Virus record (IMG/VR): IMGVR_UViG_2663763243_000005
Location: 1-64,000 of that record
DNA from: a virus
Taxonomy: Duplodnaviria > Caudoviricetes
DNA length: 64,000 nucleotides
Direction: 5' to 3' (one strand)
A model generated the notes under the pieces. That model had not been told where the DNA came from and ran no database searches. It saw only the letters and a program-made list of their open reading frames with translations. Positions 4,271-64,000 of this stretch are shown in pieces (position 1 is the stretch's first letter; each line of letters opens with the position of its first letter). The translations under genes were made by a program, and so were the position numbers.

Positions 4271-4382
4271 CCTGCTTGAGCGAAGCTAACTAAACAATCT
4301 GAGAACTTCCCTCCGGCTTACCGGTTATCGTCAGTAATTTTTGACGATAGGCATTTTTATGCCTGAAATCTGGATAAGCATC

Positions 4383-6122
4383 ATGAGTACATTACTTTCT
4401 GCGCAATCTGTCAGCTACGACAACACCTTCGGTCCGTTACTGGCTGAGATTTCTTTTAGCCTGAAAAAAGGCGACCGCATCGGCCTGATTGGGCATAACG
4501 GCTGTGGCAAAAGTACCCTTCTGAATATCCTCAGCGGTGCACTATCTATGACCTCTGGCACCATCACAACAGCAAATCAATGCTTGATGGCCACGGTAGA
4601 ACAGCATCTGCCCTGCGCATTAAACGAAGCTACGTTGATAGATGCGGTGCTCAATCATCTGCCGGGCAGCCTGCACCAACCGGAACGCTGGCAAGCCGAA
4701 GTCCTACTCGCCACACTGGGTTTTGAGGAAAACGTATGGTCACTGACTGCCGCAACTCTGAGCGGCGGGCAACATACGCGCCTGCTGCTAGCGCGAGCTT
4801 TGATCCGCCAGCCGGATTTACTGCTGCTGGATGAGCCCAGTAACCACCTGGATTTACCAACTCTGCTATGGCTTGAACAGTTTCTACAAAATTGGGGAGG
4901 CAGCTTTGTACTGGTATCGCACGACCGCAGCCTGCTCGACCGCGTGACCAACTGCACCTGGATCTTGCGCGATAAAACCCTGCAATTTATTCGTCTACCC
5001 TGCTCACAAGCCAGGCTGGCGTTAGAAGAAAAGGATAGCGCCGATGCTCATCGCCATCATGCAGAACAAAAGGAGATCGACCGAGTAGCGAAAAGTGCCA
5101 AACGGTTGGCTATCTGGGGCAGCGTGTATGACAACGAAAAGCTGGCTCGTAAAGCCAAGCAGATGGAGAAACAAGTTGATCGAATGAAGGAAGATCAAAC
5201 TCTATTAACGGCCGGCAATCAATGGCAATTGCGGCTCAATGGTGAAGCATTGCCTGCTGATCGTGTGCTGGCACTATCTGATTTGCAGGTGCGTCCTGCG
5301 CCGGATGCACCTGTTTTATTCGAACTGGATGAAGTTAGAGTAAAAAGTGGCGATCGCATCGCGCTAGTTGGCCGCAATGGCTGCGGTAAGTCATCGTTAT
5401 TACATAGCTTATGGCAGGAATTTAACCAGCCAGAAACCTCCGATGCGGGTATAGTTTTTCATCCAAAAGTCCGTATGGGATATTACGATCAAAGCCTACA
5501 TCAATTACACGATGACGATTCAATCAGCGACGCGCTGACGCCTTTTGCACCATTGACGGAAGACCAGCGAAAAATGGCGCTGATTGGTGCGGGCTTCCCT
5601 TACCTGCGGCATCAACAAAAGGTAAGTACCCTAAGCGGTGGTGAACGTTCACGGCTGCTGTTTATCGGCTTAACACTGGCAAACTATTCGTTACTGCTAC
5701 TGGATGAGCCGACCAACCACCTCGATATAGAAGGTAAAGAGGAACTGGCGGAAACACTAAAAACGTTCAAAGGTGCAGTATTATTGGTGTCACATGACCG
5801 CATGCTAATTGAGCAAAGTTGTAATCGCTTCTGGTTGATCCACCAACAACGGCTCGAAGAGTGGCACGACCTGGCTCCGGTTTACAACATTCTGGCCGAT
5901 AAACCAGTAATAGCGCCGAGTTCAAGTTCAGCCATTGCTACAGCTGCTATTACCACCCTCATGAAAAGTGAGGAAGATTATTTGCTGACAGCCTTGCTGG
6001 ATCTGGAGGCCAAACTGGCCGAGGATTTGGCGCGGAAACCTAAACACCAAAAAATCACATTACAACGTGAGTGGCAGCAACAAATCGACGAGCTTAATAG
6101 TCTGCTAGGTTTAAGAGAGTGA
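4383..6122 (+). CDS. ABC-F family ATP-binding protein (ribosome-associated)
   Basis: Two ABC domains (GHNGCGKS/LSGGQ/DEPSNHLD and GRNGCGKS/LSGGE/DEPTNHLD), helical linker, no TM segments. Start could be 4359 or 4383. Confidence 0.93.
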   Translation: MSTLLSAQSVSYDNTFGPLLAEISFSLKKGDRIGLIGHNGCGKSTLLNILSGALSMTSGTITTANQCLMATVEQHLPCALNEATLIDAVLNHLPGSLHQPERWQAEVLLATLGFEENVWSLTAATLSGGQHTRLLLARALIRQPDLLLLDEPSNHLDLPTLLWLEQFLQNWGGSFVLVSHDRSLLDRVTNCTWILRDKTLQFIRLPCSQARLALEEKDSADAHRHHAEQKEIDRVAKSAKRLAIWGSVYDNEKLARKAKQMEKQVDRMKEDQTLLTAGNQWQLRLNGEALPADRVLALSDLQVRPAPDAPVLFELDEVRVKSGDRIALVGRNGCGKSSLLHSLWQEFNQPETSDAGIVFHPKVRMGYYDQSLHQLHDDDSISDALTPFAPLTEDQRKMALIGAGFPYLRHQQKVSTLSGGERSRLLFIGLTLANYSLLLLDEPTNHLDIEGKEELAETLKTFKGAVLLVSHDRMLIEQSCNRFWLIHQQRLEEWHDLAPVYNILADKPVIAPSSSSAIATAAITTLMKSEEDYLLTALLDLEAKLAEDLARKPKHQKITLQREWQQQIDELNSLLGLRE

Positions 6123-9812: not shown

Positions 9813-9956
9813 TTTCATGAGATCAGAAGTTTAGCCGGACGATTGTATGAAAAGGAAAAAGGTAAGAAATTTGCGATGAAACTACTGGGGCATAAATCGG
9901 AGAAGATGACGAACAAGTATCTTGATACGATAGGGAAAGAATACGTGATGCTATAA
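9813..9956 (+). pseudogene. 3' remnant of phage integrase
   Basis: FHEIRSLAGRLYEKEKGKKFAMKLLGHKSEKMTNKYLDTIGKEYVML, 45/47 aa identical to the C-terminus of Int 55438-56517. Confidence 0.92.
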
Positions 9957-9971
9957 AAGACCGAATATCAG

Positions 9972-10003
9972 ATTTCGATAAAATTTCGATAAATTTCGAT
10001 AAA
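9972..10003 (+). repeat. Three direct ATTTCGATAAA repeats, putative Int arm-type sites
   Basis: ATTTCGATAAAATTTCGATAAATTTCGATAAA, lying between the int stop and the core. Confidence 0.6.
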
Positions 10004-10040
10004 CCACAAAATTCACCTTTAAAATCAATGGGTTAAAAAT

Positions 10041-10058
10041 AGACCGAATACGATTCCT
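10041..10058. repeat. att core (left junction of main prophage), SdsR/RyeB 3' end fragment
   Basis: AGACCGAATACGATTCCT identical to 56602-56619; reverse complement matches the SdsR terminator arm AGGAATCGTATTCGGTCT. Confidence 0.88.
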
Positions 10059-10552
10059 CTTTTAGATTTAAAATGTTTTTTCTTTTTAAAATCAAAAAAT
10101 TAAATCAATATTACCTCAAAAAACACCTTCCGTTACCTTACTTTCCTAGCCTTTAAATTCATATAGTTAACAGCTAATTCGGAACCATTCGTAAAAATTT
10201 CGATACGTTTAATGCGTTCGGCTTGTGTTTTGTAGCAAGGTACGATTAAGTTTGACTGGCAGCTATGAGCGAGGAGCGGAAGTTACCCACTGACTTTTAT
10301 CATGGCATCTTAGTTCTACTGACATAGCTTATAGCCTAGCCAGAATAGTGAGATTATTGTAGACCCATGGCTAACCGCGATTATGCAGGAGGTTTCTTCT
10401 GAGACACAATCTACCGTACACAGCCTTGATTTACCTTTAATGCTGAAGCTAATCAGCTCAGAAGAGCGGCCTATGTATCGAAGTCGCGAGAAAAATAGTT
10501 AAAAAATCTTATATTTGTTATATGATTCCCAACAAAAAATTAGGAGGGAACC

Positions 10553-12496: not shown

Positions 12497-14497
12497 ATGT
12501 TTTTGAATAATTCAGAGCAGGCAGTCATCTTAATGTTAGCAACAATTCCAACACAAAAAACAACATCGAATAAATTTCGTAATGATATCAATGGACTTCG
12601 AGCATGGGCGGTCATTGCCGTTGTTCTGTACCATTTTGGTGTGCCAGGGTTCTCGGGTGGGTTTGTCGGTGTGGATGTTTTCTTTGTCATCTCCGGCTTT
12701 TTAATGACCCGGATCATCGTTTCTGGCATGGAGTCAGGCAATTTTTCATTCTTACAGTTTTATCTGGCCAGAGCGCGAAGAATTATTCCCATGCTTTTGG
12801 TGCTATGTTTTGCTCTATTAATTTTTGGTTGGTTCTGGCTGCCTGAACATAATTATAAATTGCTAGCAACCCATGTGGTAAATACACTCTTTTTTATATC
12901 GAATATTAAATTTTGGCGTGAATCGGGTTATTTCGATGCGTCCTCACATGAAAAGTGGTTGTTACATACCTGGTCACTTTCTGTGGAGTGGCAGTTTTAT
13001 ATTATTCTGCCTATTATCATTTTTGTGCTGTGGAAGTTCATCAATTACAAGGCGGTTAAATTTGCCTTATTCGCACTAGGATTCCTATCACTGTGCCTTT
13101 CTATCTATGCTTCACAACGCTGGCCGTCAGCGGCGTTTTACCTTCTGCCAACCAGAATGTGGGAAATGCTAGCTGGGGGGATGGCTTGGTGGATAACGCG
13201 TAGAAAGGCATTGCCGGAGACTCTGGCGAGATATACAGAAGTTATCGGCATAGTATTTATCTCTGCGTCAATTGTGCTATTTAACTCATCAATTGTTTGG
13301 CCCGGTTCAAATGCGCTATTACCGGTAGCCGGTGCGGTGCTGGTACTGATTTCTGCGCGGCAAAAATCAATTTTCACCGCTAATATTATCGCTCAAAAGT
13401 TGGGGGCCAGTTCCTATTCTATCTATTTATGGCATTGGCCTATTGTCGTCGCATTAACTTATTTAAGTTTACTCAGTAACTATAAATGGGTGCTGCTGGC
13501 TTTAGTTGCTACCGTGATATTAGGTGAATTATCTCTTAAGTTAGTGGAAAATCCATCACGGAAAGTTTTCGCCAAATTATCCACCACCTCTAACCTGGTC
13601 TATATATCACTGTGTACACTGGTCGTTGGTGTGCTGGCACTGACAGTTAGGCACAGTACGCTCGATCGCGACATTATGGCAGATAAAGAAACCGTTGAGC
13701 TTTATGCAAAAATACAATCATTTCATGTAATGCCAAACCGAGATAATGGTTATTGTTTTTATAATGTTGACAGTGAGTCCGACCCCATCATCTCAATGGA
13801 AAAATCAGTGTGCAAACTGGGGGTTAAGTCATTGAAGCCAAAAGGTCTGCTTTTTGGTGACTCCTTTGCCGGACATTATGAACCCTTCGTCGATGAAGTC
13901 GCGAAGAAACTCGGTATATCAGTAGATTCCGTCACCACTAACTGGTGTTTCCCGAGCTTAACGGATTCAACCAATGGCACTAAAACACGAGTGGCCTATA
14001 AACAGTGCCTGTTAAATAGAGAATATCTAAAAGATAATATTTCAAAATATGATTTCGTTATATTTTCTGGCATCTGGTTTGATTTATATCGCAAAGGTTA
14101 TCAAAATGAAATTGTTGATGTGATTAAATATGCCAAATCTAAAGGGGTGAAAGTGTATGTCATGGCATCCCCAACACAATACGACATCAATGTTTTTGCT
14201 AATTTTATCGCTGCGGGAGTCAATGATTTACCGTTTAGATTAAAAGGTAATTCCAATAAAAAAGATGATGATACCCAAAAGATGGATATTATCTTCTCGC
14301 AATTAGAACAAGATGGGTATATAAAATTCATCAAAAAAGATGACATATTTGATGAAAGTGACTCATACCATTACAACGGAATAGAGATCCCCTACTCTCT
14401 TGACGGTGCTCATATCTCAATTGACAGTTCATTGATGGCTGCCAAACGATTTATTGAAACTGGTGTCTATAAAAAATACTTTTCAGATGTAAAGTAA
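12497..14497 (+). CDS. O-antigen acetyltransferase (acyltransferase-3 + SGNH, OafA/Oac-like)
   Basis: FRNDINGLRAWAV, GVDVFFVISGFLM, HTWSLSVEWQFY, SYSIYLWHWP; SGNH motifs GDSF and DGAH. Confidence 0.92.
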   Translation: MFLNNSEQAVILMLATIPTQKTTSNKFRNDINGLRAWAVIAVVLYHFGVPGFSGGFVGVDVFFVISGFLMTRIIVSGMESGNFSFLQFYLARARRIIPMLLVLCFALLIFGWFWLPEHNYKLLATHVVNTLFFISNIKFWRESGYFDASSHEKWLLHTWSLSVEWQFYIILPIIIFVLWKFINYKAVKFALFALGFLSLCLSIYASQRWPSAAFYLLPTRMWEMLAGGMAWWITRRKALPETLARYTEVIGIVFISASIVLFNSSIVWPGSNALLPVAGAVLVLISARQKSIFTANIIAQKLGASSYSIYLWHWPIVVALTYLSLLSNYKWVLLALVATVILGELSLKLVENPSRKVFAKLSTTSNLVYISLCTLVVGVLALTVRHSTLDRDIMADKETVELYAKIQSFHVMPNRDNGYCFYNVDSESDPIISMEKSVCKLGVKSLKPKGLLFGDSFAGHYEPFVDEVAKKLGISVDSVTTNWCFPSLTDSTNGTKTRVAYKQCLLNREYLKDNISKYDFVIFSGIWFDLYRKGYQNEIVDVIKYAKSKGVKVYVMASPTQYDINVFANFIAAGVNDLPFRLKGNSNKKDDDTQKMDIIFSQLEQDGYIKFIKKDDIFDESDSYHYNGIEIPYSLDGAHISIDSSLMAAKRFIETGVYKKYFSDVK

Positions 14498-41913: not shown

Positions 41914-42010
41914 AAAAACCCCGCAAAAAGCGAGGTTTTTTTGAGTTGTGTAAGCTACGTGACTAAGTAACTATGCTTATCAGAATATAACTATTTTTGC
42001 GTACGCGTTA
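41914..42010 (-). promoter_or_regulatory. pR'-like late promoter/Q-binding region and tR' terminator
   Basis: TAACGCGTACGCAAAAA element, then AAACCTCGC-TTTTT-GCGGGGTTTTT; same layout as 1125-1220. Confidence 0.65.
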
Positions 42011-42090
42011 TTTTTTTTGTATTGTATTTTTGGAACAAGTTTTTTCAACTAGTAACATTCAGCAATTATTCACTTATACAAGGAAGAAAA

Positions 42091-42906
42091 ATGAATTTCA
42101 GTGATACTAAAAGTAGTGAGTTTCCTAAAAAAACTGTTGTTAATGTATTTGAAGTAAATCAAGACTCCAGTAACTCACTGTTCTCCTCTTTGCAACAGTG
42201 TGCGAACTTCAAGCAAGATGCCGAATTTAAGATAAACTCGACTAGAACTATACGTATACGTAAGATTAACTACGACGGAAATAACTGCTACTGTCACATT
42301 ACTTTCTACAATCCAAAAGAAAGCGTATCCATAACGCCAATAACGAGCACTGCGCTGGATTTATTAGATGTGGATAACTACGACACTTGTCATCTATTTA
42401 TGCTTGTGAATGGAAATCGTATACGTGCAATATCACAAATATCCTATAACTGGATGGATAAAAAAATAAAATTATTTTTAGATCAATTGAGTATTTACGT
42501 AAAACCAACTGTAGTATTAGACCAAGAAGTAATTCAATCGATTAAAGATGAAGGATTTTCATCATTACATGTAAATGCAACCATTCACTCAACTACATTT
42601 AAAGATGATGCTATAACAGGTATTTTTAGAAAGGTTCCCAAGGCAGGAAGTAATGGCATTTATGGGAATATCACTTTTTCATCTAAAAATAATCCTGCAA
42701 TCGCAGTTTCAGTTGAGAATAACACTCAGTCTTGGGTTGATGATTTAGGCTCTGATTTTTATATAAAAACAAAAAAAGGACAAAAAATAACTGGCGATAA
42801 AATAAAACTCCATAGGATGTATTATACTTTACCCTATGGTTCTAAAACAATAACTTCCTCATCTGCTTTTGAAATTCTTTATCATTTTAAGTTAAATGTG
42901 TTATAA
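42091..42906 (+). CDS. Hypothetical AT-rich soluble protein (moron gene 1)
   Basis: ~271 aa ORF with AAGGA RBS, opposite strand to the phage late genes. Confidence 0.75.
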   Translation: MNFSDTKSSEFPKKTVVNVFEVNQDSSNSLFSSLQQCANFKQDAEFKINSTRTIRIRKINYDGNNCYCHITFYNPKESVSITPITSTALDLLDVDNYDTCHLFMLVNGNRIRAISQISYNWMDKKIKLFLDQLSIYVKPTVVLDQEVIQSIKDEGFSSLHVNATIHSTTFKDDAITGIFRKVPKAGSNGIYGNITFSSKNNPAIAVSVENNTQSWVDDLGSDFYIKTKKGQKITGDKIKLHRMYYTLPYGSKTITSSSAFEILYHFKLNVL

Positions 42907-42941
42907 TTAAATGAGTAACAAGATGAAAGAGGGTTGTTATA

Positions 42942-43451
42942 ATGAAAATTAAAGATCTCGATTGGAAATTAATTTCAACCCTAATTATATTTATAATACT
43001 GTCTATTTGCTTTTCTTTTTTCTTGGGAAGAAATCTTTCATCAAATGAAAATGCATTAAATTTAATTGCGAACGTATTTGCCGTTCTGAGTGGTTTTTTA
43101 TTGTTAGTTATAACAATGACTAGTGACACTGCATCTATTTCCTCAGGATTATCACAAACTGAAAAAAACAATCAAAAAACAAGATTTAACATAAGATTCA
43201 AACGATACTATTTACTTTTTTCATTGTATTTTTTCGTTTTGTTAATGATTTTCATTTACTACATAATATGTAAAAAACCTAATGCTATTGATTCATTAAT
43301 ATTAACTTATTTTCGTATATCGTTAGAGTATTTAATTGCATTTTTCACATCACTATCATTTTCACTTTCCTTATTGATCCCAATATTGATAAGAGAGCTG
43401 TACTTCGAAAAAATAGAGCTCTCAGAAAAAAAAGATAATCATGATGACTAG
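42942..43451 (+). CDS. Hypothetical 4-TM membrane protein (moron gene 2)
   Basis: Four hydrophobic segments, GAGGG RBS, 35 bp after gene 1. Confidence 0.75.
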   Translation: MKIKDLDWKLISTLIIFIILSICFSFFLGRNLSSNENALNLIANVFAVLSGFLLLVITMTSDTASISSGLSQTEKNNQKTRFNIRFKRYYLLFSLYFFVLLMIFIYYIICKKPNAIDSLILTYFRISLEYLIAFFTSLSFSLSLLIPILIRELYFEKIELSEKKDNHDD

Positions 43452-43453
43452 GT

Positions 43454-43861
43454 TTAGTCTTGACCTATATTTCTATCAAGAATACACAATACCCCACCAA
43501 TAAACCCTATTGCCGTTTGCATCTCTTTCCTGATTGTCCCATCTGAGCACTTACGCCTTTTCGCTATCATTCGCAGTGAAACACCGTATACATAGTGCAA
43601 AATCACCAGCTCATACTCTTCTGGTTTATACTTTTTCAATCGCGCCACACAGCCATCAATCATAATGCCGTCATCATCACAGCACTGTGGCCGTGATTTG
43701 TTGGTATATGGGAGTAGCCCCTTAAAGCCTGCGGCAATAGGTTGCCAATCTACCTGGCTATTATCATTAGCGGCCCATGCTCCCCAAAGCTCCAATAGAT
43801 ATTGAATATCCAGCATTGTTTTTTCCTGCTCTGACGGCAGGCTTTGCGGTGCGGCTCTCAT
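43454..43861 (-). CDS. Late antiterminator Q
   Basis: DIQYLLELWGAWA, IAAGFKGLLP, CCDDDG, CSDGTIRKEMQTA.GFI.G. Confidence 0.93.
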   Translation of the reverse strand: MRAAPQSLPSEQEKTMLDIQYLLELWGAWAANDNSQVDWQPIAAGFKGLLPYTNKSRPQCCDDDGIMIDGCVARLKKYKPEEYELVILHYVYGVSLRMIAKRRKCSDGTIRKEMQTAIGFIGGVLCILDRNIGQD

Positions 43862-55187: not shown

Positions 55188-55502
55188 ATGGCTAAATTAA
55201 TGACATTAACCGAATGGTGTGATGAAACGTATGCGACTGACAAGCCGACGATTCAAACACTCCAACGCTGGGCCAGAAACGGTAACTTTTACCCTGCGGC
55301 AGAAAAACACGGCAGACAGTATAGGGTAAAACCTAATGCTATTTATATCGATCCGAAGGATTTCAATCTCGGTAAAAAAATCAAAGATGCCAAAAGCGCG
55401 GCCCCTGCGCGGAATGCGTTTATGGAGAAAGTGATCAATGACTCGGCGGAAAAAGTACGATGCGAACTTACCGCGCAATCTCACCTATCGCCATCGCTAT
55501 AA
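55188..55502 (+). CDS. xis: Excisionase
   Basis: MTL.EW....Y...P...TL.RWAR.G..YPA.EK.GR.YRV...A.YI; overlaps int. Confidence 0.9.
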   Translation: MAKLMTLTEWCDETYATDKPTIQTLQRWARNGNFYPAAEKHGRQYRVKPNAIYIDPKDFNLGKKIKDAKSAAPARNAFMEKVINDSAEKVRCELTAQSHLSPSL

Positions 55503-56517
55503 ATCATACTATTGGCGCAATCCGTTAACAGGGAAAGAAATCCCGTTAGGCCAAATCTCCCGCAGAGAAGCCGTTTCACAATCTATCGAGGCCAATAATT
55601 ATGTTGAGCAAAACTACTCTCCTGTATTACTACTGGAAAAATTGAAAGGCACACAAGAGTACACAATGACCTCCTGGCTTGAACGTTACGATGTCATATA
55701 CAAGCGCAGAGAATTGGCAATGAACACTTACAAAGTTCGCAAGGGGCAAATAGCCATGATCAGCGAAAAGATGGGCAATATGGTTCTGGCTAAAATCACC
55801 ACCCGTCACGTTGCTGAATTTCTAGAGTTTTGGGTGGCACAGGACAAAAAAACCATGGCCGCCACCATGCGATCAGTGTTGTCTGATATTTTCCGAGAGG
55901 CGATTGTCGAGGGCCATATAGATAATAATCCAGTGACACCGACACGCTCAGCTAAACCGGTGGTGAAACGTGAGCGCCTGGAACTGGATCAGTATCTCGC
56001 TATTCGTGAGGTCGCTGACACATTACCGGCGTGGTTTGGGCTATCAATGGATCTGGCACTGGTGACGGGCCAACGACGTGAAGATTTATCACTGATGCGC
56101 TTTGACCAGATTGTTGATGGCAGATTACAGATAGACCAAGGCAAAACAGGAGCCATGATCTCCCTGCCCTTAGATCTTGAGCTTAAAGCCGTTGGCCTAC
56201 GTCTTAACACCGTGATTGAACAATGTAGATTAGCCAGTAAGACTGATTTTATGATAAGTGCTGGCATCAGAAAAAATAGCCCTGATGGCTCACTGCATCC
56301 AGATAGCCTGACAAAGAAATTCGTAACGGCGAGAAAAGGAACAGATTTTCGTTTTGATGAGAGTCCACCAACTTTTCACGAGATCAGAAGTCTCGCTGGG
56401 CGATTGTATGAAAAGGAAAAAGGTAAAGAATTTGCGATGAAACTGCTGGGGCATAAATCGGAGAAGATGACGAACAAGTATCTTGATACGAGGGGTAAAG
56501 AATACGTAATGCTATAA
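55438..56517 (+). CDS. int: Lambda-type tyrosine integrase
   Basis: Arm-binding N-terminus; TGQRREDL, FHEIRSL, LLGHKS, KYLD catalytic residues. Confidence 0.95.
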   Translation: MTRRKKYDANLPRNLTYRHRYKSYYWRNPLTGKEIPLGQISRREAVSQSIEANNYVEQNYSPVLLLEKLKGTQEYTMTSWLERYDVIYKRRELAMNTYKVRKGQIAMISEKMGNMVLAKITTRHVAEFLEFWVAQDKKTMAATMRSVLSDIFREAIVEGHIDNNPVTPTRSAKPVVKRERLELDQYLAIREVADTLPAWFGLSMDLALVTGQRREDLSLMRFDQIVDGRLQIDQGKTGAMISLPLDLELKAVGLRLNTVIEQCRLASKTDFMISAGIRKNSPDGSLHPDSLTKKFVTARKGTDFRFDESPPTFHEIRSLAGRLYEKEKGKEFAMKLLGHKSEKMTNKYLDTRGKEYVML

Positions 56518-56601
56518 AAGACCGAATATCAAAATTCGTGTAATTTTCGTGTATTTTCGTTTTTACTAAAAAATAACCTTTAAAATCAACAAGTTAAAAA
56601 G

Positions 56602-56619
56602 AGACCGAATACGATTCCT
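56602..56619. repeat. att core (right junction), SdsR/RyeB 3' end fragment
   Basis: AAAAAGAGACCGAATACGATTCCT; preceded by three TTCGTGTA-like arm repeats at ~56533-56562. Confidence 0.88.
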
Positions 56620-56783
56620 AAAGGTGAGAATTCTTAAATTTATCTATATAAAACAATAAGATAATCAGAGTTATGACCTTTAGTCTGCGTTTGACACCGT
56701 CTTTAAAAGATCAACATGATCATATACTTATTATCTATTTCGAAAATACTCGGGAAAAGTTCGGGCGCTAAAATGAGGGAAAC

Positions 56784-56996
56784 ATGATATCGACACTATT
56801 TATAGTCAGCCTAATACTAGCCGCAGTAATGATCACCATTCACCCTGCTCTCTGTGTCCCGTTTGTTATCGCTGCTTACCTGTTAGCAGGTAAAGGCAAT
56901 ATGCACATGGATAGTAATACCAGCATCATTTTAGGGATCATCGGATTTATTCTGTTATTGGTTCTGTTCGTCATTGTGAATGACGCCTTCAAATAA
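56784..56996 (+). CDS. Small membrane protein
   Basis: 70 aa, highly hydrophobic, GAGGG RBS. Confidence 0.7.
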   Translation: MISTLFIVSLILAAVMITIHPALCVPFVIAAYLLAGKGNMHMDSNTSIILGIIGFILLLVLFVIVNDAFK

Positions 56997-57109
56997 TTAT
57001 TGATGGTGTAATGTAGATTAATCGCCGGATGCAACACATTGGTCGAATTGCTTAAAAATTGATTATTTGGTTAAATAATGCCATTTGATAAAAGGACTTG
57101 GGGTGAATT

Positions 57110-57667
57110 TTGCACTGCTGGAATTGGCATGATTTTGAAGACGAGACGGAAGTTACCGAACATGACGAGTTTGACCAATACAACTTCAGCTCTGAATATG
57201 AGCCAAGAGAGCTGGTTGCCAGACAATTTTGGGTTGGAAAAGCTGAATCCGGTCACTTCTATACTATTGGTTTTGTAAAGATCGAAAAGCAATCTGTACT
57301 CAACAGCCTTTTAGGTGAGATGATCTACAGTAATCATCCCCTTGCCATTCCTAAAAGTGGCGCTTGGGTGGTAACATTCGACCTTGCCGATGAAGAAAAT
57401 GATTTCGCTCATGTTAAACTTGATTATAAGGCTATAAAGGATTTAGTGTCTGAGGTTGCTTGTGCAGTTTATGACCATTATAATGTAACTAAGGCTGGGC
57501 TTTACTGTTGGTATGCTGCAAGGAAAGAACTTCTAAGCATTTATGATACGGCTCTCGGATTTGACTCTGACCGAAACATTAAGCTCAAGGTAATACCTTC
57601 TACGTCCAACTTTAATAAATTAGGTGATCAAGGGAGGGGTTATGCAATCATCACGAAATACTACTGA
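57110..57667 (+). CDS. Hypothetical protein (acidic N-terminus)
   Basis: 185 aa ORF, overlaps the next gene. Confidence 0.7.
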   Translation: MHCWNWHDFEDETEVTEHDEFDQYNFSSEYEPRELVARQFWVGKAESGHFYTIGFVKIEKQSVLNSLLGEMIYSNHPLAIPKSGAWVVTFDLADEENDFAHVKLDYKAIKDLVSEVACAVYDHYNVTKAGLYCWYAARKELLSIYDTALGFDSDRNIKLKVIPSTSNFNKLGDQGRGYAIITKYY

Positions 57668-58211
57668 ATTCCCGCCTGGCGATCAGCTTTATGCATCGTT
57701 GAATCGTAAGCTGAAAAAGACTTCAGCCAACATAACAAAGCGTAAACTTAATACTGGCGAGTACGTGATGTATCAAGGCAGAATAGTACCGGCTAATGTC
57801 GTAGAAGAGGCTAAAGCGGAAGCAGTAGAGGAAAGGCAGAGTCTCACTCATATTGCTGCAGATCGGCCAATGAGACACGTACTATTTCAGCCACTACGCG
57901 CTGGCCACCTAGGAGCTAAACGCCTGGATTCTGGTGCATGGATTGCGTGGATTGGTAGTCGGAAAAGCGTAACAGCCACTTCGGTAGAGACTTCAATCCG
58001 TCATCCGATGCACGTTATGGTAGCTGTACCCATTAGACAAGATAGTTCTCAGGAGGTGCCAAAAGACGGCCAGCTCTTTTCTTATGATGCTAAATCTGGG
58101 CAGATGCTTCTGGTTGTAGCTCACGGGAAGATTGGCGGCATGGTCAGGCGTTCGCACCGCTCAAGATCCCAGCAGCAAGCCATGGGGAACGTAGTTCTCA
58201 AAGCCAAATAG
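57642..58211 (+). CDS. Hypothetical basic protein
   Basis: GGAGGGG RBS before ATG 57642; followed by a terminator. Confidence 0.65.
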   Translation: MQSSRNTTEFPPGDQLYASLNRKLKKTSANITKRKLNTGEYVMYQGRIVPANVVEEAKAEAVEERQSLTHIAADRPMRHVLFQPLRAGHLGAKRLDSGAWIAWIGSRKSVTATSVETSIRHPMHVMVAVPIRQDSSQEVPKDGQLFSYDAKSGQMLLVVAHGKIGGMVRRSHRSRSQQQAMGNVVLKAK

Positions 58212-58229
58212 CCCCGAAAGGGGCTTTTT
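58210..58229 (+). terminator. Intrinsic terminator
   Basis: AGCCCC-GAAA-GGGGCTTTTT. Confidence 0.85.
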
Positions 58230-58429
58230 ACTACCTGCTATTAAATCTACTCTGGTTCGGAAATTTTAGACCATCCTTGGCAATTCATGTTGACCTATCA
58301 AGCCGCATGGCAAAGTGCGCTAAAGCTGTACGGTGTATATTTATAATCCGAAGGGGCTATTAACCGTAATATCGCTTTTGTAAGGAAGCGAGAACAAATG
58401 TATCTTGCTGCAGCAGAACTAGTGACTGG

Positions 58430-59041
58430 CTAAAACAATTCCATGGTTTGCCCAGAGGCTGGCCCCGGTTTTAGTGCAAAAGTACCTTTGATCGGTTCAT
58501 CCAGCAGCAGAAATTTATCCAATTGCAGAGCGGGGATAAATTTAAAACCTTCTTGCCCACGAGCTCTAGCTATTTCTCTAGTTTCCATGAGTATTCTACC
58601 AAGTACATTCATCCCGTAAAAGCTGCCATCTGATTCACGACGAGCTCCCCAAAAAAGGTCTTTTTCAGAATGTTCAACAATATTAATAACACCAGTAGAA
58701 TTAAGGAGTTGAAAAAAAACCTCCCAATTTTGGCAAAGTTTTATGCGGACGCACCATTTCATTATGGAGACTCGATTTTTCTCCCAACCATCACGTGTTT
58801 TCGGCTCATAGTATCTGGCTACTTGCTTCGCCTCAAAGGGGTTGCTTAGGGTGATTATCTCCTTTTGTATTTCCGGATAGTCTGGGTAACGGCAGGCCTG
58901 ATAGAGGATTTCACTAGACTGGATAGGAATATCGTTAACATACAGCGGAAATCCTCGCGCCATGTTAGATAGCCCGCCCCATTTTTCCGTCGTTTTTCTG
59001 AAACTGACTGTCTCATTGTTTGGATAAATTCGGTAGCTCAT
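58430..59041 (-). CDS. NADAR (YbiA-like) family N-glycosidase
   Basis: GGLSNM, SSE.LYQA.RY, R.GWEK.RV.IM......K..Q, LL.STG...IVE.S..D.FWGA, G.N.LGRILME.RE. Confidence 0.9.
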   Translation of the reverse strand: MSYRIYPNNETVSFRKTTEKWGGLSNMARGFPLYVNDIPIQSSEILYQACRYPDYPEIQKEIITLSNPFEAKQVARYYEPKTRDGWEKNRVSIMKWCVRIKLCQNWEVFFQLLNSTGVINIVEHSEKDLFWGARRESDGSFYGMNVLGRILMETREIARARGQEGFKFIPALQLDKFLLLDEPIKGTFALKPGPASGQTMELF

Positions 59042-59043
59042 AG

Positions 59044-60117
59044 TTACTGATTATACCCGGTTCTGCGCATCAATGGATACCAGCAATCCAGTGCCCAGTT
59101 TGGGATCCCATCGCGCTCATATCTTCCCCACCAGAAAGCTAATGGAGTATTATTTGGACAATTTCGATAAGTGAAAATGGTTCCACCGAACCCTAGTCCA
59201 GGGAATGTTGAAAAGCCGAGAGGTTTGAGAATCGGAGCGGGATTTTGACTTTGCTGAAGTATATAAAAACCAGCCTTTGTCAGTGCATATTCAAAACGAT
59301 AGCGATCAGCCATCTTGAGGAATATGTCGTTTGGCCTAAAATGGGTCCTTTCAGTGCCTTTGCGCGATGTATAGATCGCCGGATGTTGGATCCAGTCTGG
59401 TAGGTCAATACCATTACTACGTAACCAGAAAACTTCAGAAGATGAGGAATAACTAAGGCGATTTTCGCGCGTTTTGATGAATCCGTTTTTTTTGATAATA
59501 AGTCTGATATTTCGCCCTTGAAACCTTTCCGCAAGAGTTGTCTCTAGCATATAAGTTGCATATCTATGAGTCCCTAGGAACCACACGCGGATAGTCACAT
59601 TACTTAGGTTAAAGTGTTCTACAAACCAAGTAATATCGCTAAAAGCCTTGTTCCCTGAAAAACAAACATCGTCGAAGTAAATGAATTTATTGAATTGTGC
59701 AACTCTTTTGTTTTTGGAATTTCTTGATAAGGTAACTATACCTAATCCTTCGAATCCCTCTGCTTGGGTTTCTAAAAGTTCCAGTAAATTAATCTGACTA
59801 GTCCCACGATTTGTTTCTTGTATATTAAGGAATGCTGATTCGTGGATAATAGGTCTATTATTCTCACTCCTGAGAATATCATTAATTTTTTCTACATAAT
59901 CATTTTTGTTGATATATGCATTTCGAAGTAACGCCAGCGTTTGCTCAAGAATGAAAAGTTTGTCTCTTTCCTCAAATTGCTCAATCCAGCGACCTACATG
60001 TACTGAGTTCATCCCCTGCCGAGGGGCAAGTTCATAGCCCACAAGAATTTCTGCAATTTGTTCTTGTATAGCATTTTTTTGTTCGGATTCATTATTGTCC
60101 ATAGGATTTTCACACAT
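59044..60117 (-). CDS. Phosphoribosyltransferase-like conflict protein (PRTase-CE / ShosT-like)
   Basis: PRPP-loop FIYFDDVCFSG, N-terminal HV.RW..QF, C-terminal LGFG...FTYRNCPNNTPLAFW..W.PL..R. Confidence 0.75.
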   Translation of the reverse strand: MCENPMDNNESEQKNAIQEQIAEILVGYELAPRQGMNSVHVGRWIEQFEERDKLFILEQTLALLRNAYINKNDYVEKINDILRSENNRPIIHESAFLNIQETNRGTSQINLLELLETQAEGFEGLGIVTLSRNSKNKRVAQFNKFIYFDDVCFSGNKAFSDITWFVEHFNLSNVTIRVWFLGTHRYATYMLETTLAERFQGRNIRLIIKKNGFIKTRENRLSYSSSSEVFWLRSNGIDLPDWIQHPAIYTSRKGTERTHFRPNDIFLKMADRYRFEYALTKAGFYILQQSQNPAPILKPLGFSTFPGLGFGGTIFTYRNCPNNTPLAFWWGRYERDGIPNWALDCWYPLMRRTGYNQ

Positions 60118-60484
60118 AATCACTCCTTTTTATACAGTCAACAAGACCAGTCCCAAAATTTTGTGAGTACACATGTGTAGTTTAATATAATGCTGTAGTA
60201 TCACAATTTCATAATAACACATTGATTTATATTCTTTTAAAGATCACTTTCACAAAAATGAATTTACGTGCATGTCTATCTGAATCAGAAGAATTATAGC
60301 GCCGCACTTAATGTAGATTTACCATTTTCTTAAGTACTCTTTTGGCACAGAGCCTTCTGTCAGATCTAATTACACTCAGGCGAGGCTGCAATCGAATTGG
60401 CAAGCCAAACCATCTATAACCATAACAAAATCACTTTACCCAAAAGTTAATAAATCAGGGAGTCCTTCCAAACTCCCTTTCAAT

Positions 60485-63400
60485 TCACTTATTAAAGTAC
60501 GGATTCACCCTTTCCACCGCCTGCTTTACCAGTTTATTTCTGGTTGCCATCAACCGGTCAATTTTTTCTCTTTTCTGATCCGCTGTTAGTATCCGGTCCC
60601 GCCTCATCATTTCAATCTGGGCATTCAGTGCTTTCACTTGCTTTTGCGTCGCTGTTAGCCCCTGACGCTGCGATAATTTCCCTCTATTTTCCTCTATCAA
60701 TTCATTAGCATCATCGCCACGCCCCTGCTTACGGAAGCTGTTAATAGTGCTGTTGATCTGGTTGGCTTCGGTCATCATGCGGTAAAAATCTTCAGTGAAC
60801 TGGGTAGACTTGGCCGGATCTGAACCTCTGAAGAATGATTTAATCACCGGTAACTCATCCAACCGCATGGCCGGGGTTTCGCCGTAGTCTTTCAGGTTAC
60901 GCATCAGAAGATTGGTCGCCCCCATCACATAGCCGCCCAAGCTGCCGGTGTAACCCATCACAATATGATCCAGCATCTTCGGTGACATATTGGTCGCCTC
61001 ACCTATTTCACGCATTAATAGGCTGGTCTGGTCATTATAACGGGCCCCGGCCATCAAATTGCTGTCGGCCATGTTCTCAATCGGCCCACCTTTGAAGAAA
61101 TCATAGTTAACATAAGCCTCGGCAATCGGCATCGCGACTTGTGGGATAGGGTTGAATGCCATCGTTTCCATAAAGTTATGTGCCACCAGCTTGCCAAATT
61201 TAGCCCCGGTATCTTTACCGCCCAGCGCGCGGACAAACCGCTCAGGTAAAGTGCCAAATATCGCGCCAAACTCGAACGGTTTTGGAAAGCGGATATGCTG
61301 ATCACCAATCCACGCATGCCAATAGGTGTCTTTATCCCAGTCTTGTAGCTCTTCATAACGTTTGTCGTCCCAATTCAGCGCCATCAGTGCCAGCGAGGCG
61401 GCGGTGATCATGCCGCCGCGTTTCAGCACTTCGCGCGGATTCTCTTTGATAGCTCGGCCTAATTTACTCAGCCCCTGCATCCGGGCGTTGAAGAACGGCA
61501 GCATATCACTCAGGTTTATCATGATATTACTGGCCCCCATCATGCTGAAATCCATCAAGTCACGCGACTCAAATGCTGCCTGCGCCTTACTTTTCCCTGA
61601 TTTAATGGCGGATTCATATGTGGCCAGTCGGTTGGCGTTTTCTGCTGCTTCACTGAGATTTTTATATTTATGCAAACCCTGTTCAATCTTGCCCATCACC
61701 TCTTTGCTGTTGCGGGCGATTGAGGACTCAAATTCTAGTATCTGACTATCGTTGTAACCTTTACGCCGTAGAACACTACGAATGGTTTTAGCAGTCGATG
61801 CCGGATCATAAACATTCGAATAACCACCACCAAAAGTGGCACCGGCAAACATCATATCCACCAGGCTATCATCAGTGCGTAATGCTTTTTTAAATCCGGC
61901 CCATGAAGCGATAACCGGCTTAAAACCATCTTTGTTAATGGCCCATGAATGAATAGAGTCACGCATAAAGTTACGGATGATAAAATCAGGCATTGATGTG
62001 GTGCTGACGGTCAGTACCTTTTTAGCCTGGCGGGCCGCTTTCATAAAGGTGGAATTACTGCGCTCAAGGTCAATCATGGTAAAGGCGCGATACAGTTCAG
62101 GATCATTAACCTGTACCAGTTTTTCCTGCCCATCAACAAACACCTTCACCACATCTTTGCCGATGCGCTCAAAGTCCATCTTGTTCGGTGATTCAATCAC
62201 CTCCAGCACACCAGTATCAGCAAGGTTCACCACTGACCTGCGCATTGCTTCATTTTTCATCGAAGCATCGACCGATTTCGCCACGTAGTTAAACAGGTTT
62301 TCGATAGGATCCTTAATGGTCAAATCGCTGCCTTTTAACTTGCGCACGGTACTGCTCTGGTTAGCAATGCCTTTACTGGTCCACGGCCCCTTCACCTCAC
62401 CATTTTCTGCTTCACGGTAATAGGGCAAGTACCAGGCATCCTCCCACTGTGCGCGGCTTTCTGGATCAATCAATCCCATATCCTGTTGCAGATCCAGAAT
62501 CGACTTAATAAAGGCATCATACTTTTTCTTTTGACCTTCGAATAAAGCCTCATTACCCCGGTTGAGGGTTTTCATATAAGCAATTTCGTCAGCATTAAAG
62601 TTGTTCTCTTTGCCCTCTTTCATCAGTCGTTCAGAGCGATGGCCGGCGATCCATTTAAAGAAGTTTTCCCGATGGTTTCCCAGTCCGTCGAGAATACCCA
62701 TAAGAGCATCCTCTTTACCGGTACCGGATTGACGCTCGATTATCCCTTCGGCTTTGTTATAGCGCGGCAAGCCATGCTCTAAAGTGGCAGCAGTAACAGA
62801 GCCTGCTCCGGCAGCCATACGCGCTCCAATGTAGGCAGAACTTCGTGCATCATTGATACCAGCGGCATCTTCGGCATACTTCAGCGGAGCCATGCCATCA
62901 AAGGTTTTAGTATTGAGTTTACGGCCGGTTTCTTTTAGCCAGGCTTTCAGTTCCGTTTTATCTTTGCTGGTCACGGTGCCGTAGAAAGTCTTGGCCTTAT
63001 CAAACCACCCCTGCTCAACGTTAAAGCCCATTTTGCGGTTGGTTTCAGCATCCATTGATGGGTTAGCAGTGCGGGAGTAAAGTGCCTTATTCTTGCGAAT
63101 ATCGGTCGATGAGAGTATATTTTCAACTGAATCTTGATTTGGTGAACCGCGTTTGAGCAATTGAAGCTCTTGGGCCGTACCAGATTGGGATTCTGAACCC
63201 TGATAAGTGTTCTCCTTGGGCAATTGGAGCCCAACAGAACGAAGCTTATCGGGGTTTTGTTTTTCTCGGCGGTATAACGCTAAACCAGCATCCTCCATAC
63301 CTTGAACTTTCGCCATGCCCCCCACTGTGCCGTACACTGAAGCAACTCGATTAACTTCCAAGCGCCCACGTTTTGCATTCATATGAATAGCAGTAACCAC

Positions 63401-64000
63401 CGGGTTTCCGTTTGCATCATGAGCCTCCAGAAGAGCAACTATTGCGTTATCCTGTGTTGCTGAGCGATATACTGCTAACGGGTCATGCATCAGCTCAGGA
63501 AGCTGCTCAATGACCTCAGTCGGTACGTTGTGTTTTATTCCATTGGTCGCTTTACGTACCGTATCACGAGAAATTACCATCTCCACATTGGGAGCGCCAA
63601 GCGCACGGAGTACCGGCGGTGTTCTGCCTATTGAAACCGTTATGTCATCGGACCGTAACGAACGCATCGCTTTATCAAGCTCAGATCTATATTGTTCGGA
63701 TTCCACTGGTAATGGCTTGAGTGGGTCCACATCATCATGTTTCGAATACAGTGCGTCTGACCGAGAGAAAGTATTATCGAACTCCCGCGTTCCCGGCTGT
63801 TCACCATCATACATAGCCGTCTTTTTGAAGCGCCCGGCGACCGTGCGCAGAATATTACGTATTTCCGTTGGGGAAATGTCATTCGCATTCATGATGCCCG
63901 TTTTCTTCAATCCATTGATCAGCACAGAAACAAAACGGTTCCACATCGCCCCAAGACCGCTGAGTTCTGAGCGCTCCGCCATGTGGGCTAAGAATTCATT
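60485..64000 (-). CDS. Large polyvalent/virion ejection protein with MuF-C and LPD38 domains (5' end outside window)
   Basis: Frame is open to the window end (..NEFLAHMAER). MuF-C-like GRTPPVL..LG...KH.V....IEQLP....DP.AV.RS; LPD38-like PFFNA.MQG, PKPFE.G..F...PER. Confidence 0.8.
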   Translation of the reverse strand, partial: NEFLAHMAERSELSGLGAMWNRFVSVLINGLKKTGIMNANDISPTEIRNILRTVAGRFKKTAMYDGEQPGTREFDNTFSRSDALYSKHDDVDPLKPLPVESEQYRSELDKAMRSLRSDDITVSIGRTPPVLRALGAPNVEMVISRDTVRKATNGIKHNVPTEVIEQLPELMHDPLAVYRSATQDNAIVALLEAHDANGNPVVTAIHMNAKRGRLEVNRVASVYGTVGGMAKVQGMEDAGLALYRREKQNPDKLRSVGLQLPKENTYQGSESQSGTAQELQLLKRGSPNQDSVENILSSTDIRKNKALYSRTANPSMDAETNRKMGFNVEQGWFDKAKTFYGTVTSKDKTELKAWLKETGRKLNTKTFDGMAPLKYAEDAAGINDARSSAYIGARMAAGAGSVTAATLEHGLPRYNKAEGIIERQSGTGKEDALMGILDGLGNHRENFFKWIAGHRSERLMKEGKENNFNADEIAYMKTLNRGNEALFEGQKKKYDAFIKSILDLQQDMGLIDPESRAQWEDAWYLPYYREAENGEVKGPWTSKGIANQSSTVRKLKGSDLTIKDPIENLFNYVAKSVDASMKNEAMRRSVVNLADTGVLEVIESPNKMDFERIGKDVVKVFVDGQEKLVQVNDPELYRAFTMIDLERSNSTFMKAARQAKKVLTVSTTSMPDFIIRNFMRDSIHSWAINKDGFKPVIASWAGFKKALRTDDSLVDMMFAGATFGGGYSNVYDPASTAKTIRSVLRRKGYNDSQILEFESSIARNSKEVMGKIEQGLHKYKNLSEAAENANRLATYESAIKSGKSKAQAAFESRDLMDFSMMGASNIMINLSDMLPFFNARMQGLSKLGRAIKENPREVLKRGGMITAASLALMALNWDDKRYEELQDWDKDTYWHAWIGDQHIRFPKPFEFGAIFGTLPERFVRALGGKDTGAKFGKLVAHNFMETMAFNPIPQVAMPIAEAYVNYDFFKGGPIENMADSNLMAGARYNDQTSLLMREIGEATNMSPKMLDHIVMGYTGSLGGYVMGATNLLMRNLKDYGETPAMRLDELPVIKSFFRGSDPAKSTQFTEDFYRMMTEANQINSTINSFRKQGRGDDANELIEENRGKLSQRQGLTATQKQVKALNAQIEMMRRDRILTADQKREKIDRLMATRNKLVKQAVERVNPYFNK

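Follow-up and report, generated by a model that had tools for sequence, protein, structure and literature searches.

A probable stand-alone copy of the anti-phage gene pair DS-32 in an Enterobacterales-type prophage, and its relatives embedded in type I restriction-modification operons

The stretch of DNA analyzed here (the window, 64,000 nucleotides) is the first 64 kb of the virus record IMGVR_UViG_2663763243_000005, a 78.6-kb provirus. It contains a pair of genes, one for a phosphoribosyltransferase (PRTase)-like protein and one for a protein of the NADAR family, which together resemble the two-gene anti-phage system DS-32 (Table 1). The two genes lie head to tail on the same strand, and the stop codon of the PRTase gene and the start codon of the NADAR gene form the junction TAA-ct-ATG, with a spacer of 2 nt. 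The GTG codon that opens the PRTase open reading frame (ORF) sits within an AAGGAG Shine-Dalgarno sequence; therefore, ATG 60117 is the likely start of the gene, and the predicted product would have 357 amino acids (aa), equal to the length of its closest homologues. The GC content across 58.5-60.5 kb, which holds the pair, was 0.355-0.428, and that of the flanks was approximately 0.46-0.50. The ORFs, the GC profile, and the junction agree with the initial annotation of this DNA, which had described two AT-rich genes 2 bp apart.

In the search against NCBIfam, the PRTase exceeded the cut-off of NF053875.1 (DS32_1_antiphage; 272.6 bits, cut-off 250, E = 4.5e-81) over profile positions 3-322 of 322, and the NADAR exceeded that of NF053876.1 (DS32_2_antiphage; 263.2 bits, cut-off 240, E = 6.8e-79) over profile positions 1-181 of 181. 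Both are equivalog models built by NCBI from DS-32. According to the accessible text of the DefensePredictor report (bioRxiv 2025/Science 2026), DS-32 consists of two genes, DS-32A (PRTase) and DS-32B (NADAR), and its protection of E. coli against phages was validated. The same text describes a screen in which MG1655 cells with transcription units under their native promoters on a low-copy plasmid were exposed to 24 phages, and a hit was called when the efficiency of plating decreased at least 10-fold or the plaques became smaller. The gene order in the window, PRTase and then NADAR, is that of DS-32A and DS-32B, and the prophage setting is likewise common to both. Of 5426 complete E. coli genomes, 62 were found to contain a homologous pair in a blastn search in the sensitive mode. 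The products of the pair of E. coli A35, which RefSeq names "phosphoribosyltransferase-like anti-phage protein" and "NADAR family anti-phage protein", showed 49% (PRTase) and 69% (NADAR) identity with those of the window. These results indicate that the pair is very probably a stand-alone copy of the DS-32 system, as judged from its sequence. Compared via the E. coli pair named in RefSeq, it is a diverged DS-32 orthologue in an Enterobacterales-type prophage, in another insertion context.

The initial annotation had proposed a two-gene conflict module with an anti-phage role, and this proposal is upheld, since both proteins exceed the equivalog cut-offs of a validated system. On the other hand, its view that the pairing was uncharacterized has to be given up. 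Because the pair is DS-32, published in 2025/2026, the combination of a PRTase with a NADAR is not new, RefSeq already names the E. coli homologues as anti-phage proteins, and the pair is already assigned in a defence catalogue via NCBIfam. PADLOC 2.0.0 (2023), which does not include DS-32, gave weak partial matches only: the PRTase matched the retron model PRTase_III-A (E = 2.2e-6) and no PDC-M42 model, and the NADAR matched PDC-M42C (E = 7.4e-8). A literature search, which covered papers other than subscription-only ones, found no follow-up on DS-32 to the DefensePredictor report.

The PRTase was assigned to the Pfam family PRTase-CE (PF24390; E = 1.3e-34, 120.7 bits, cut-off 27) over residues 44-354 and profile positions 2-253 of 253, and its C-terminal end lies 5 residues past this domain. 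It also matched phrog_8525 (E = 9.8e-113). The loop FIYFDDVCFSG for binding of phosphoribosyl pyrophosphate (PRPP) is present; D151 and D152 are invariant among 60 aligned relatives, and F155 and G157 are conserved in at least 90% of them. In the same alignment the C-terminal block RNCPNNxPL..WW..WYPL is invariant or almost so, the invariant residues being N321, P323, N324, N325, P327, L328, W331, P350, and L351. W46, Q49, F50, and Y70 are invariant in the N-terminal helical part. Both the PRPP loop and the C-terminal NCPNN motif, on which the initial annotation had relied, are thus real features of the family.

The AF2 model of the PRTase had a mean predicted local distance difference test score (pLDDT) of 92.5 and a predicted template modelling score (pTM) of 0.90. 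Residues ~72-219 of the model were superimposed on type I PRTases and PRPP synthetases with Z scores of 8.0-9.7 (root-mean-square deviations of 2.7-4.6 over 114-169 residues), and at least the top 20 fold matches were all PRTases or PRPP synthetases. Foldseek also placed only PRTases at the top (probability 0.94-1.0, best E = 2e-3), with no match at E ≤ 0.001. In a sequence search of the PDB, the PRPP loop of PyrR alone resembled the PRTase (E = 0.25). The N-terminal helical part and the C-terminal 140 residues, which include the RNCPNNxPL block, had no assigned counterpart in the fold matches. No ShosT or retron-effector structure was among the matches listed by the fold searches, and a similarity to these may nevertheless exist. 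The model suggests that the protein has a type I PRTase core with an intact PRPP site and would act as a PRTase.

The second gene encodes a full NADAR, as the initial annotation had stated. Its product matched PF08719 (E = 3.4e-20, 73.4 bits, cut-off 35.1) and, by sequence, the YbiA structure 2b3w (E = 2.6e-14). The structural model (pLDDT 94.0) matched YbiA 2b3w (E = 1.2e-8, TM 0.65/0.77) and the ADP-ribose-bound Phytophthora NADAR 8bau (E = 3.5e-7) in Foldseek. Among 101 unique NADAR domains of the family, E44, Y47, and Q48 are conserved in all, E123, W131, and G132 in 100, and D128 in 98. Where YbiA has the conserved lysine of the motif SSE..YQA.K, 99 of the 101 domains have an arginine (R51). 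The active site appears intact, and the protein would be catalytically active. The Pfam domain is followed by an extension (residues 157-192) that is folded with confidence in the model and in which the short NADARs of the family have a conserved FLLLG.PI motif. Residues 193-203 form a disordered, variable tail; in 19 of 50 short NADARs its last two residues are LF, and it could be a docking peptide or a degron.

The NADAR also gave a sub-threshold match to TIGR02464, the family of riboflavin-intermediate N-glycosidases (62 bits). This would fit a pair with an ordinary metabolic function, in which a YbiA-like riboflavin damage-control enzyme is a chance neighbour of a salvage phosphoribosyltransferase. 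However, the score falls below the cut-off of 73.7; the genes are accessory and prophage-borne, being present in 62 of 5426 E. coli genomes and in 3 of 401 Enterobacterales species genomes; and the PRTase has no significant sequence match to solved salvage enzymes (best E = 0.15-0.25). Such a housekeeping role is therefore extremely unlikely.

The association of the two genes was examined in 116 loci. Profile scans for the PRTase supplied the 80 best of 300 confirmed genome loci and 35 viral loci, to which the E. coli locus was added. Scans of loci with single proteins yielded almost no matches, whereas the profile-based scans were successful. A PRTase ORF was called in 115 of the 116 loci, and in every one of these a NADAR was found directly downstream on the same strand, its domain starting between -29 and +131 nt from the PRTase stop codon. 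Locus L072 is the exception: it has both frames, but that of the PRTase is interrupted by an in-frame stop near its 5' end. Conversely, NF053876 detected three NADARs above the cut-off in the 401 Enterobacterales species genomes, and a PRTase lies directly upstream of all three; the 27 best NADARs below the cut-off in these genomes had no PRTase within 1.5 kb. The co-occurrence implied by the initial annotation was therefore seen in both directions, and in the loci analyzed the two subfamilies pair exclusively with each other. In the locus of Enterobacter mori (L006:5971-9641), two PRTase paralogues, separated by approximately 1 kb and encoded on one strand, precede a single NADAR.

This linkage bears on a further reading, also raised as an alternative in the initial annotation, that the NADAR serves phage counter-defence. 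It would reverse guanine ADP-ribosylation by a host DarT1 or degrade ADP-ribose-derived signals, and the PRTase would be an accessory salvage enzyme. In the available part of PMC9503650, phage NADARs are proposed to counter ADP-ribose-based immunity, and in that of PMC11543638, the toxicity of DarT1 is rescued by NADARs of non-cognate species. However, the DS32-type NADAR was always accompanied by the PRTase (115 PRTase loci and 3 of 3 NADAR loci above the cut-off), and the family is also present in chromosomal restriction-modification operons. In addition, E. coli DS-32 was scored as defence, not anti-defence, in the accessible DefensePredictor text, and a tblastn search of the PRTase against 50,697 phage GenBank records gave no match. 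The strict linkage to the PRTase, chromosomal restriction-modification operons included, thus disfavours a role of the NADAR against DarT1-type defence, which we consider very unlikely.

The NADAR ORF is extended at its C-terminal end by more than 150 aa in 37 of the 116 loci. Thirty-three of these extensions form one cluster with a median length of 495 aa, and the type I specificity-subunit domains (PF01420) were found in all six members tested by Pfam. Three others (L035, L037, and L079) form a second cluster, in which DUF1156 was found in both members tested; one DUF1156 member gave weak sub-threshold methyltransferase matches as well, and this type of extension appears to be a methylase. 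The last one, that of L021 (364 aa), belongs to neither cluster. An independent protein database contained three NADAR plus DUF1156 proteins of approximately 1300 aa, which are 46-47% identical to the window NADAR. The possibility that the long NADAR ORFs are artefacts of ORF calling was rejected, because they are single stop-free frames and both domains were detected in 8 of 8 tested by Pfam.

The NADAR::HsdS fusions are flanked by genes of type I restriction-modification systems. In 28 of the 33 loci, the module is preceded by an HsdM-like gene and followed by an HsdR-like gene, both on the same strand; four others have the HsdM-like gene only and one has the HsdR-like gene only, several of them being at contig ends. 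The assignments to HsdM and HsdR were checked by Pfam on representative genes. The fused ORF is the only HsdS-like ORF in 33 of 33 loci, and 14 of these loci show a 4-nt overlap between the hsdM stop and the start of the PRTase gene. The flanking genes and the lone HsdS-like ORF indicate an operon hsdM-PRTase-NADAR::hsdS-hsdR, in which the fusion is the only specificity subunit in view. Our literature search, with the scope given above, found neither a NADAR-HsdS fusion nor a PRTase/NADAR module in restriction-modification operons. The window NADAR lacks an HsdS portion, and neither hsdM nor hsdR is located near it. In a quick maximum-likelihood tree of 105 PRTases, the fusion label changes at least six times over well-supported (starred) branches, and the window PRTase falls in a starred clade of 18 rows, all of which are stand-alone pairs from Enterobacterales and their prophages. 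At two loci (L066:4160-5956 and L022:3958-5391), extra defence-type genes lie between hsdM and the PRTase gene; one such gene is GmrSD-like, and another encodes a Schlafen/AlbA_2 protein with HATPase_c_4 and a Fic-like C-terminal domain.

The fusions of the NADAR to HsdS and DUF1156 point to DNA as the target or to the guarding of restriction-modification. In the latter case, the pair would be a guard-type abortive infection system, in which the NADAR mainly binds and silences the PRTase and senses a phage cue; in the relatives, the NADAR::HsdS fusion would tie the effector to the type I complex, and the effector would fire when anti-restriction proteins disable this complex. PrrC-EcoprrI, in which the gene for an anticodon-nuclease effector is embedded in a type I restriction-modification operon, is a model for such an arrangement. 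The relatives of the pair are likewise located between hsdM and hsdR, but their effector is a PRTase, and the window copy is stand-alone. The 33 operons with the fusion as the sole HsdS-like ORF, the 4-nt overlap between hsdM and the PRTase gene, and the folded extension and LF-ended disordered tail of the short NADARs are all consistent with this reading. On the other hand, the catalytic residues of the NADAR are almost invariant, which argues that catalysis, and not binding alone, is under selection, and no restriction-modification genes lie near the window copy. Guarding as the main function of the NADAR is thus unlikely, and it could coexist with either the writer/eraser or the metabolic mechanism considered below.

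The setting of the pair in the window was analyzed from the repeats and neighbouring genes (Table 1). The direct repeat to the left of the pair spans the 3'-terminal ~120 nt of the integrase gene (55438..56517) and ~100 nt downstream of it, and its left copy contains a remnant of an integrase but no intact gene. From their sequence, the two copies are read as the attachment (att) junctions of one ~46-kb prophage, with 56401-56620 as its right end. This middle prophage has its integrase at the right end and tail-fibre and cargo genes at the left end. A Q-like antiterminator, an endolysin, and a repressor of another phage lie to the left of 9.8 kb. To the right of 56.6 kb, the minus strand carries the NADAR, PRTase, and polyvalent protein genes, followed by those for a tail fibre and an internal virion protein. 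The direct repeat suggests three tandem prophages sharing one attachment site; tRNA scans of the att region gave no tRNA. By analogy with the middle prophage, we infer that the pair is att-proximal cargo of the third, tandem prophage. The description of the pair as prophage cargo in the initial annotation is therefore supported by inference from its position between the att-like repeat and the virion genes of a further phage-like region.

The only stretch that the window has in common with L004, a P2-like viral contig, is approximately 2 kb long and includes the promoter-like site upstream of the PRTase gene. The gene order in L004 is gpA replication gene, small ORF, PRTase, NADAR, HNH, and portal, and the homologous pair of E. 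coli A35 lies between gene P, a replication gene, and the nin region of a lambdoid prophage. Because the contexts in the window, L004, and E. coli A35 differ, the ~2-kb unit occupies at least three different prophage cargo sites. The pair would thus be a self-contained cassette of approximately 2 kb, composed of a promoter, the PRTase gene, the NADAR gene, and a terminator, the signals being predicted ones. The GC-rich hairpin lies approximately 205 nt past the NADAR stop codon. A megablast search with 56500-60500 gave no match among the phage GenBank records or the E. coli genomes.

Table 1. Features of the window, and example loci of the relatives found in restriction-modification operons
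Feature	Position	Strand	Remarks
PRTase-like gene, DS-32A equivalent	59044..60123	-	ORF of 359 aa from GTG 60123
NADAR gene, DS-32B equivalent	58430..59041	-	203 aa
Sigma-70-like promoter match upstream of the PRTase gene	60211..60240	-	TTAAAA-18-TATTAT with TG; consensus match only
Terminator-like hairpin between the polyvalent-protein gene (just past its stop) and the pair	60457..60478	-	Consensus match only
GC-rich hairpin AGCCCCGAAAGGGGCT	58210..58225	.	Terminator match on both strands; consensus match only
Att-like direct repeat: integrase gene 3' end and ~100 nt	56401..56620	+	Second copy at 9840-10060
Polyvalent virion-type protein gene, 3' part	60485..64000, to 68668 of the record	-	2727 aa; MuF_C + LPD38; upstream neighbour, same strand
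Mobile cassette extent	58287..60264	-	Only stretch common with L004, 85% over 1978 nt
Example loci of hsdM-PRTase-NADAR::hsdS-hsdR	L023:4025-12215; L049:3698-12145		33 loci within L022-L118

Several other genes were noted around the pair and in the remaining prophage regions. The polyvalent protein encoded upstream of the pair (L003:485-8668) gave strong matches to several giant PHROG families. A 185-aa ORF at 57110-57667 on the plus strand is convergent with the pair; its product, a conserved hypothetical protein of Enterobacterales for which 26 relatives with identities of up to 94% were found, matched no family in Pfam, PHROG, NCBIfam, or PADLOC, and the ORF may be further prophage cargo. 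In the middle prophage, the GC content falls to 0.28-0.31 at 42000-43500, where the plus strand carries the ORFs 42022..42906 and 42942..43451; this region may be another AT-rich cargo insert. In addition, a 593-aa ABC-type ATPase (4341-6122, plus strand; phrog_293, category moron) is encoded at a cargo position in the left phage remnant, and an O-antigen acetylase (12497-14497, plus strand; phrog_6705) is encoded at a cargo position at the att-proximal end of the middle prophage.

The pair was compared with other systems that contain a NADAR or a PRTase. In DarTG1, the NADAR is likewise the second of two operon genes and presumably reverses an N-glycosidic base adduct. The catalytic E and E/D positions of that enzyme are also kept in the window NADAR, whereas its catalytic lysine is replaced by arginine. 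The partner in DarTG1 is an ADP-ribosyltransferase, but that in the window has a PRTase fold, and therefore the donor would be PRPP, not NAD+. As the initial annotation had stated, neither a DarT nor a DprA/SLOG gene was detected among the neighbours scanned by Pfam and PADLOC. The PRPP loop and the G..PNNxP motif of the window PRTase are common to the effectors of type III-A retrons such as Retron-Eco11. In the accessible text of PMC12746101, the retron PRTase effectors bear this same signature, and the available part of a 2026 survey (PMC13712802) lists PRTase-CE with type III-A1 retrons. However, the retron effectors have a C-terminal winged-helix domain, which the window PRTase lacks, its partner being the NADAR; no reverse transcriptase domain was found by Pfam or PADLOC in the neighbours scanned, namely the polyvalent virion protein and hypothetical ORFs. 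An ncRNA neighbour, a further feature of these retrons, was likewise not noted, although no search aimed at it was made. ShosTA is also a two-gene defence system with a PRPP-using toxin of the PRTase fold, as far as the open part of PMC11961720 describes it. Its antitoxin is DprA-like, but the window pair has no DprA-like neighbour among those scanned, and the ShosT and ShosA models of PADLOC gave no match at E ≤ 0.1.

On the basis of these comparisons, we propose the following mechanism. The PRTase-CE protein would be the effector and would bind PRPP via its canonical type I PRPP loop. It would transfer the 5-phosphoribosyl group to a nitrogen of a nucleobase, most likely in DNA. The NADAR would be an N-glycosidase that removes this adduct and would thus serve as the eraser, or antitoxin, in uninfected cells. 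Infection would tip the balance, and the adduct would accumulate on phage or host DNA. In the available part of PMC11543638, NADARs hydrolyse ADP-ribosyl-guanine(N2) in DNA and the N-glycosidic bond of riboflavin intermediates. NADARs cut N-glycosidic bonds between a sugar of the ribose-5-phosphate type and an exocyclic amine, and transfer of 5-phosphoribosyl to a nitrogen of this type by a PRTase would form just such a bond. As the target, DNA is the most parsimonious guess, given that the NADAR has repeatedly become fused to modules for DNA recognition or DNA methylation. A role of the PRTase as the effector is also supported by the related PRTase of Retron-Eco11, which needs its PRPP motif for defence according to the accessible text of PMC12746101. 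The writer/eraser idea had already been raised by the authors of DS-32. In the accessible text of their report, DS-32B is described as structurally similar to the NADAR antitoxin of DarTG and DS-32A as unlike DarT, and "TA partner swapping" between toxin-antitoxin (TA) systems is proposed.

Several points weigh against this mechanism. The accessible DS-32 literature reports no measurement of activity, toxicity, or rescue. In the available text of PMC12746101, the PRTase-CE effector of Retron-Eco11 is not toxic alone, and the only readout of its activation is a decrease in PRPP of approximately 50%, with no adduct reported. R51 of the NADAR replaces the lysine equivalent to K95 of the DarT1-associated enzyme, and the K95R variant of that enzyme kept hydrolysis in vitro and lost rescue in vivo (PMC11543638, accessible part). 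The fold matches of the PRTase are middling (best Foldseek E = 2e-3, Z below 10) and hold at the level of the fold only. Furthermore, the fusion to HsdS may equally reflect regulatory tethering and not a DNA substrate.

The main rival to the writer/eraser mechanism is a metabolic effector. In this case the PRTase would consume PRPP on a small-molecule acceptor, and defence would result from starvation for PRPP or nucleotides with no DNA adduct. The NADAR would either regenerate the acceptor, giving a futile PRPP-hydrolysing cycle, or detoxify the product before infection. The decrease in PRPP, which is the only significant metabolite change upon Retron-Eco11 activation in the text cited above, fits this explanation, as does the coupling of PRTase and pyrophosphatase activities in ShosT, which disturbs purine metabolism (PMC11961720, open part). 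YbiA-type NADARs act on small-molecule ribosylamines, and the NADAR is more conserved than the PRTase in the comparison with the E. coli pair (69% versus 49%), as expected for a fixed small substrate. However, a metabolic effector leaves unexplained why, in 36 of the 116 loci, the NADAR is fused to a module for DNA recognition or DNA methylation, and the PRTase has no sequence match to ShosT models or structures. We therefore consider it rather unlikely, and the counter-defence and housekeeping explanations unlikely in any event.

The preferred explanation, a DS-32 copy acting by the proposed writer/eraser mechanism, is given a probability of roughly 0.5 as a whole. Its mechanistic part, a writer/eraser toxin-antitoxin system on DNA bases in which the PRTase activity, the acceptor, the NADAR substrate, the toxicity, and the trigger are all putative, is tentative, with chances somewhat short of even. 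A wider proposal, in which DS-32 represents, in free-standing form, a widespread module for the phosphoribosylation of DNA bases and the NADAR is a dedicated eraser often built into the type I specificity subunit, is conceivable and on balance doubtful.

By itself, the window pair is one more prophage-borne copy of a published defence system and changes little. The relatives embedded in restriction-modification operons are the most useful new lead. To our knowledge, phosphoribosylation of DNA bases from PRPP is not a described modification chemistry, and we know of no PRTase-CE effector with a known acceptor. A base adduct formed from PRPP and reversed by a NADAR would therefore be a new toxin-antitoxin chemistry, parallel to that of DarT with DarG or NADAR. 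The strict linkage of the two genes, the mobility of the cassette, and the fusion to HsdS or a methylase in approximately one-third of the loci provide testable handles on the mechanism. If the wider proposal is true, restriction, methylation, and a PRPP-dependent DNA-adduct toxin would be parts of one integrated immune machine.

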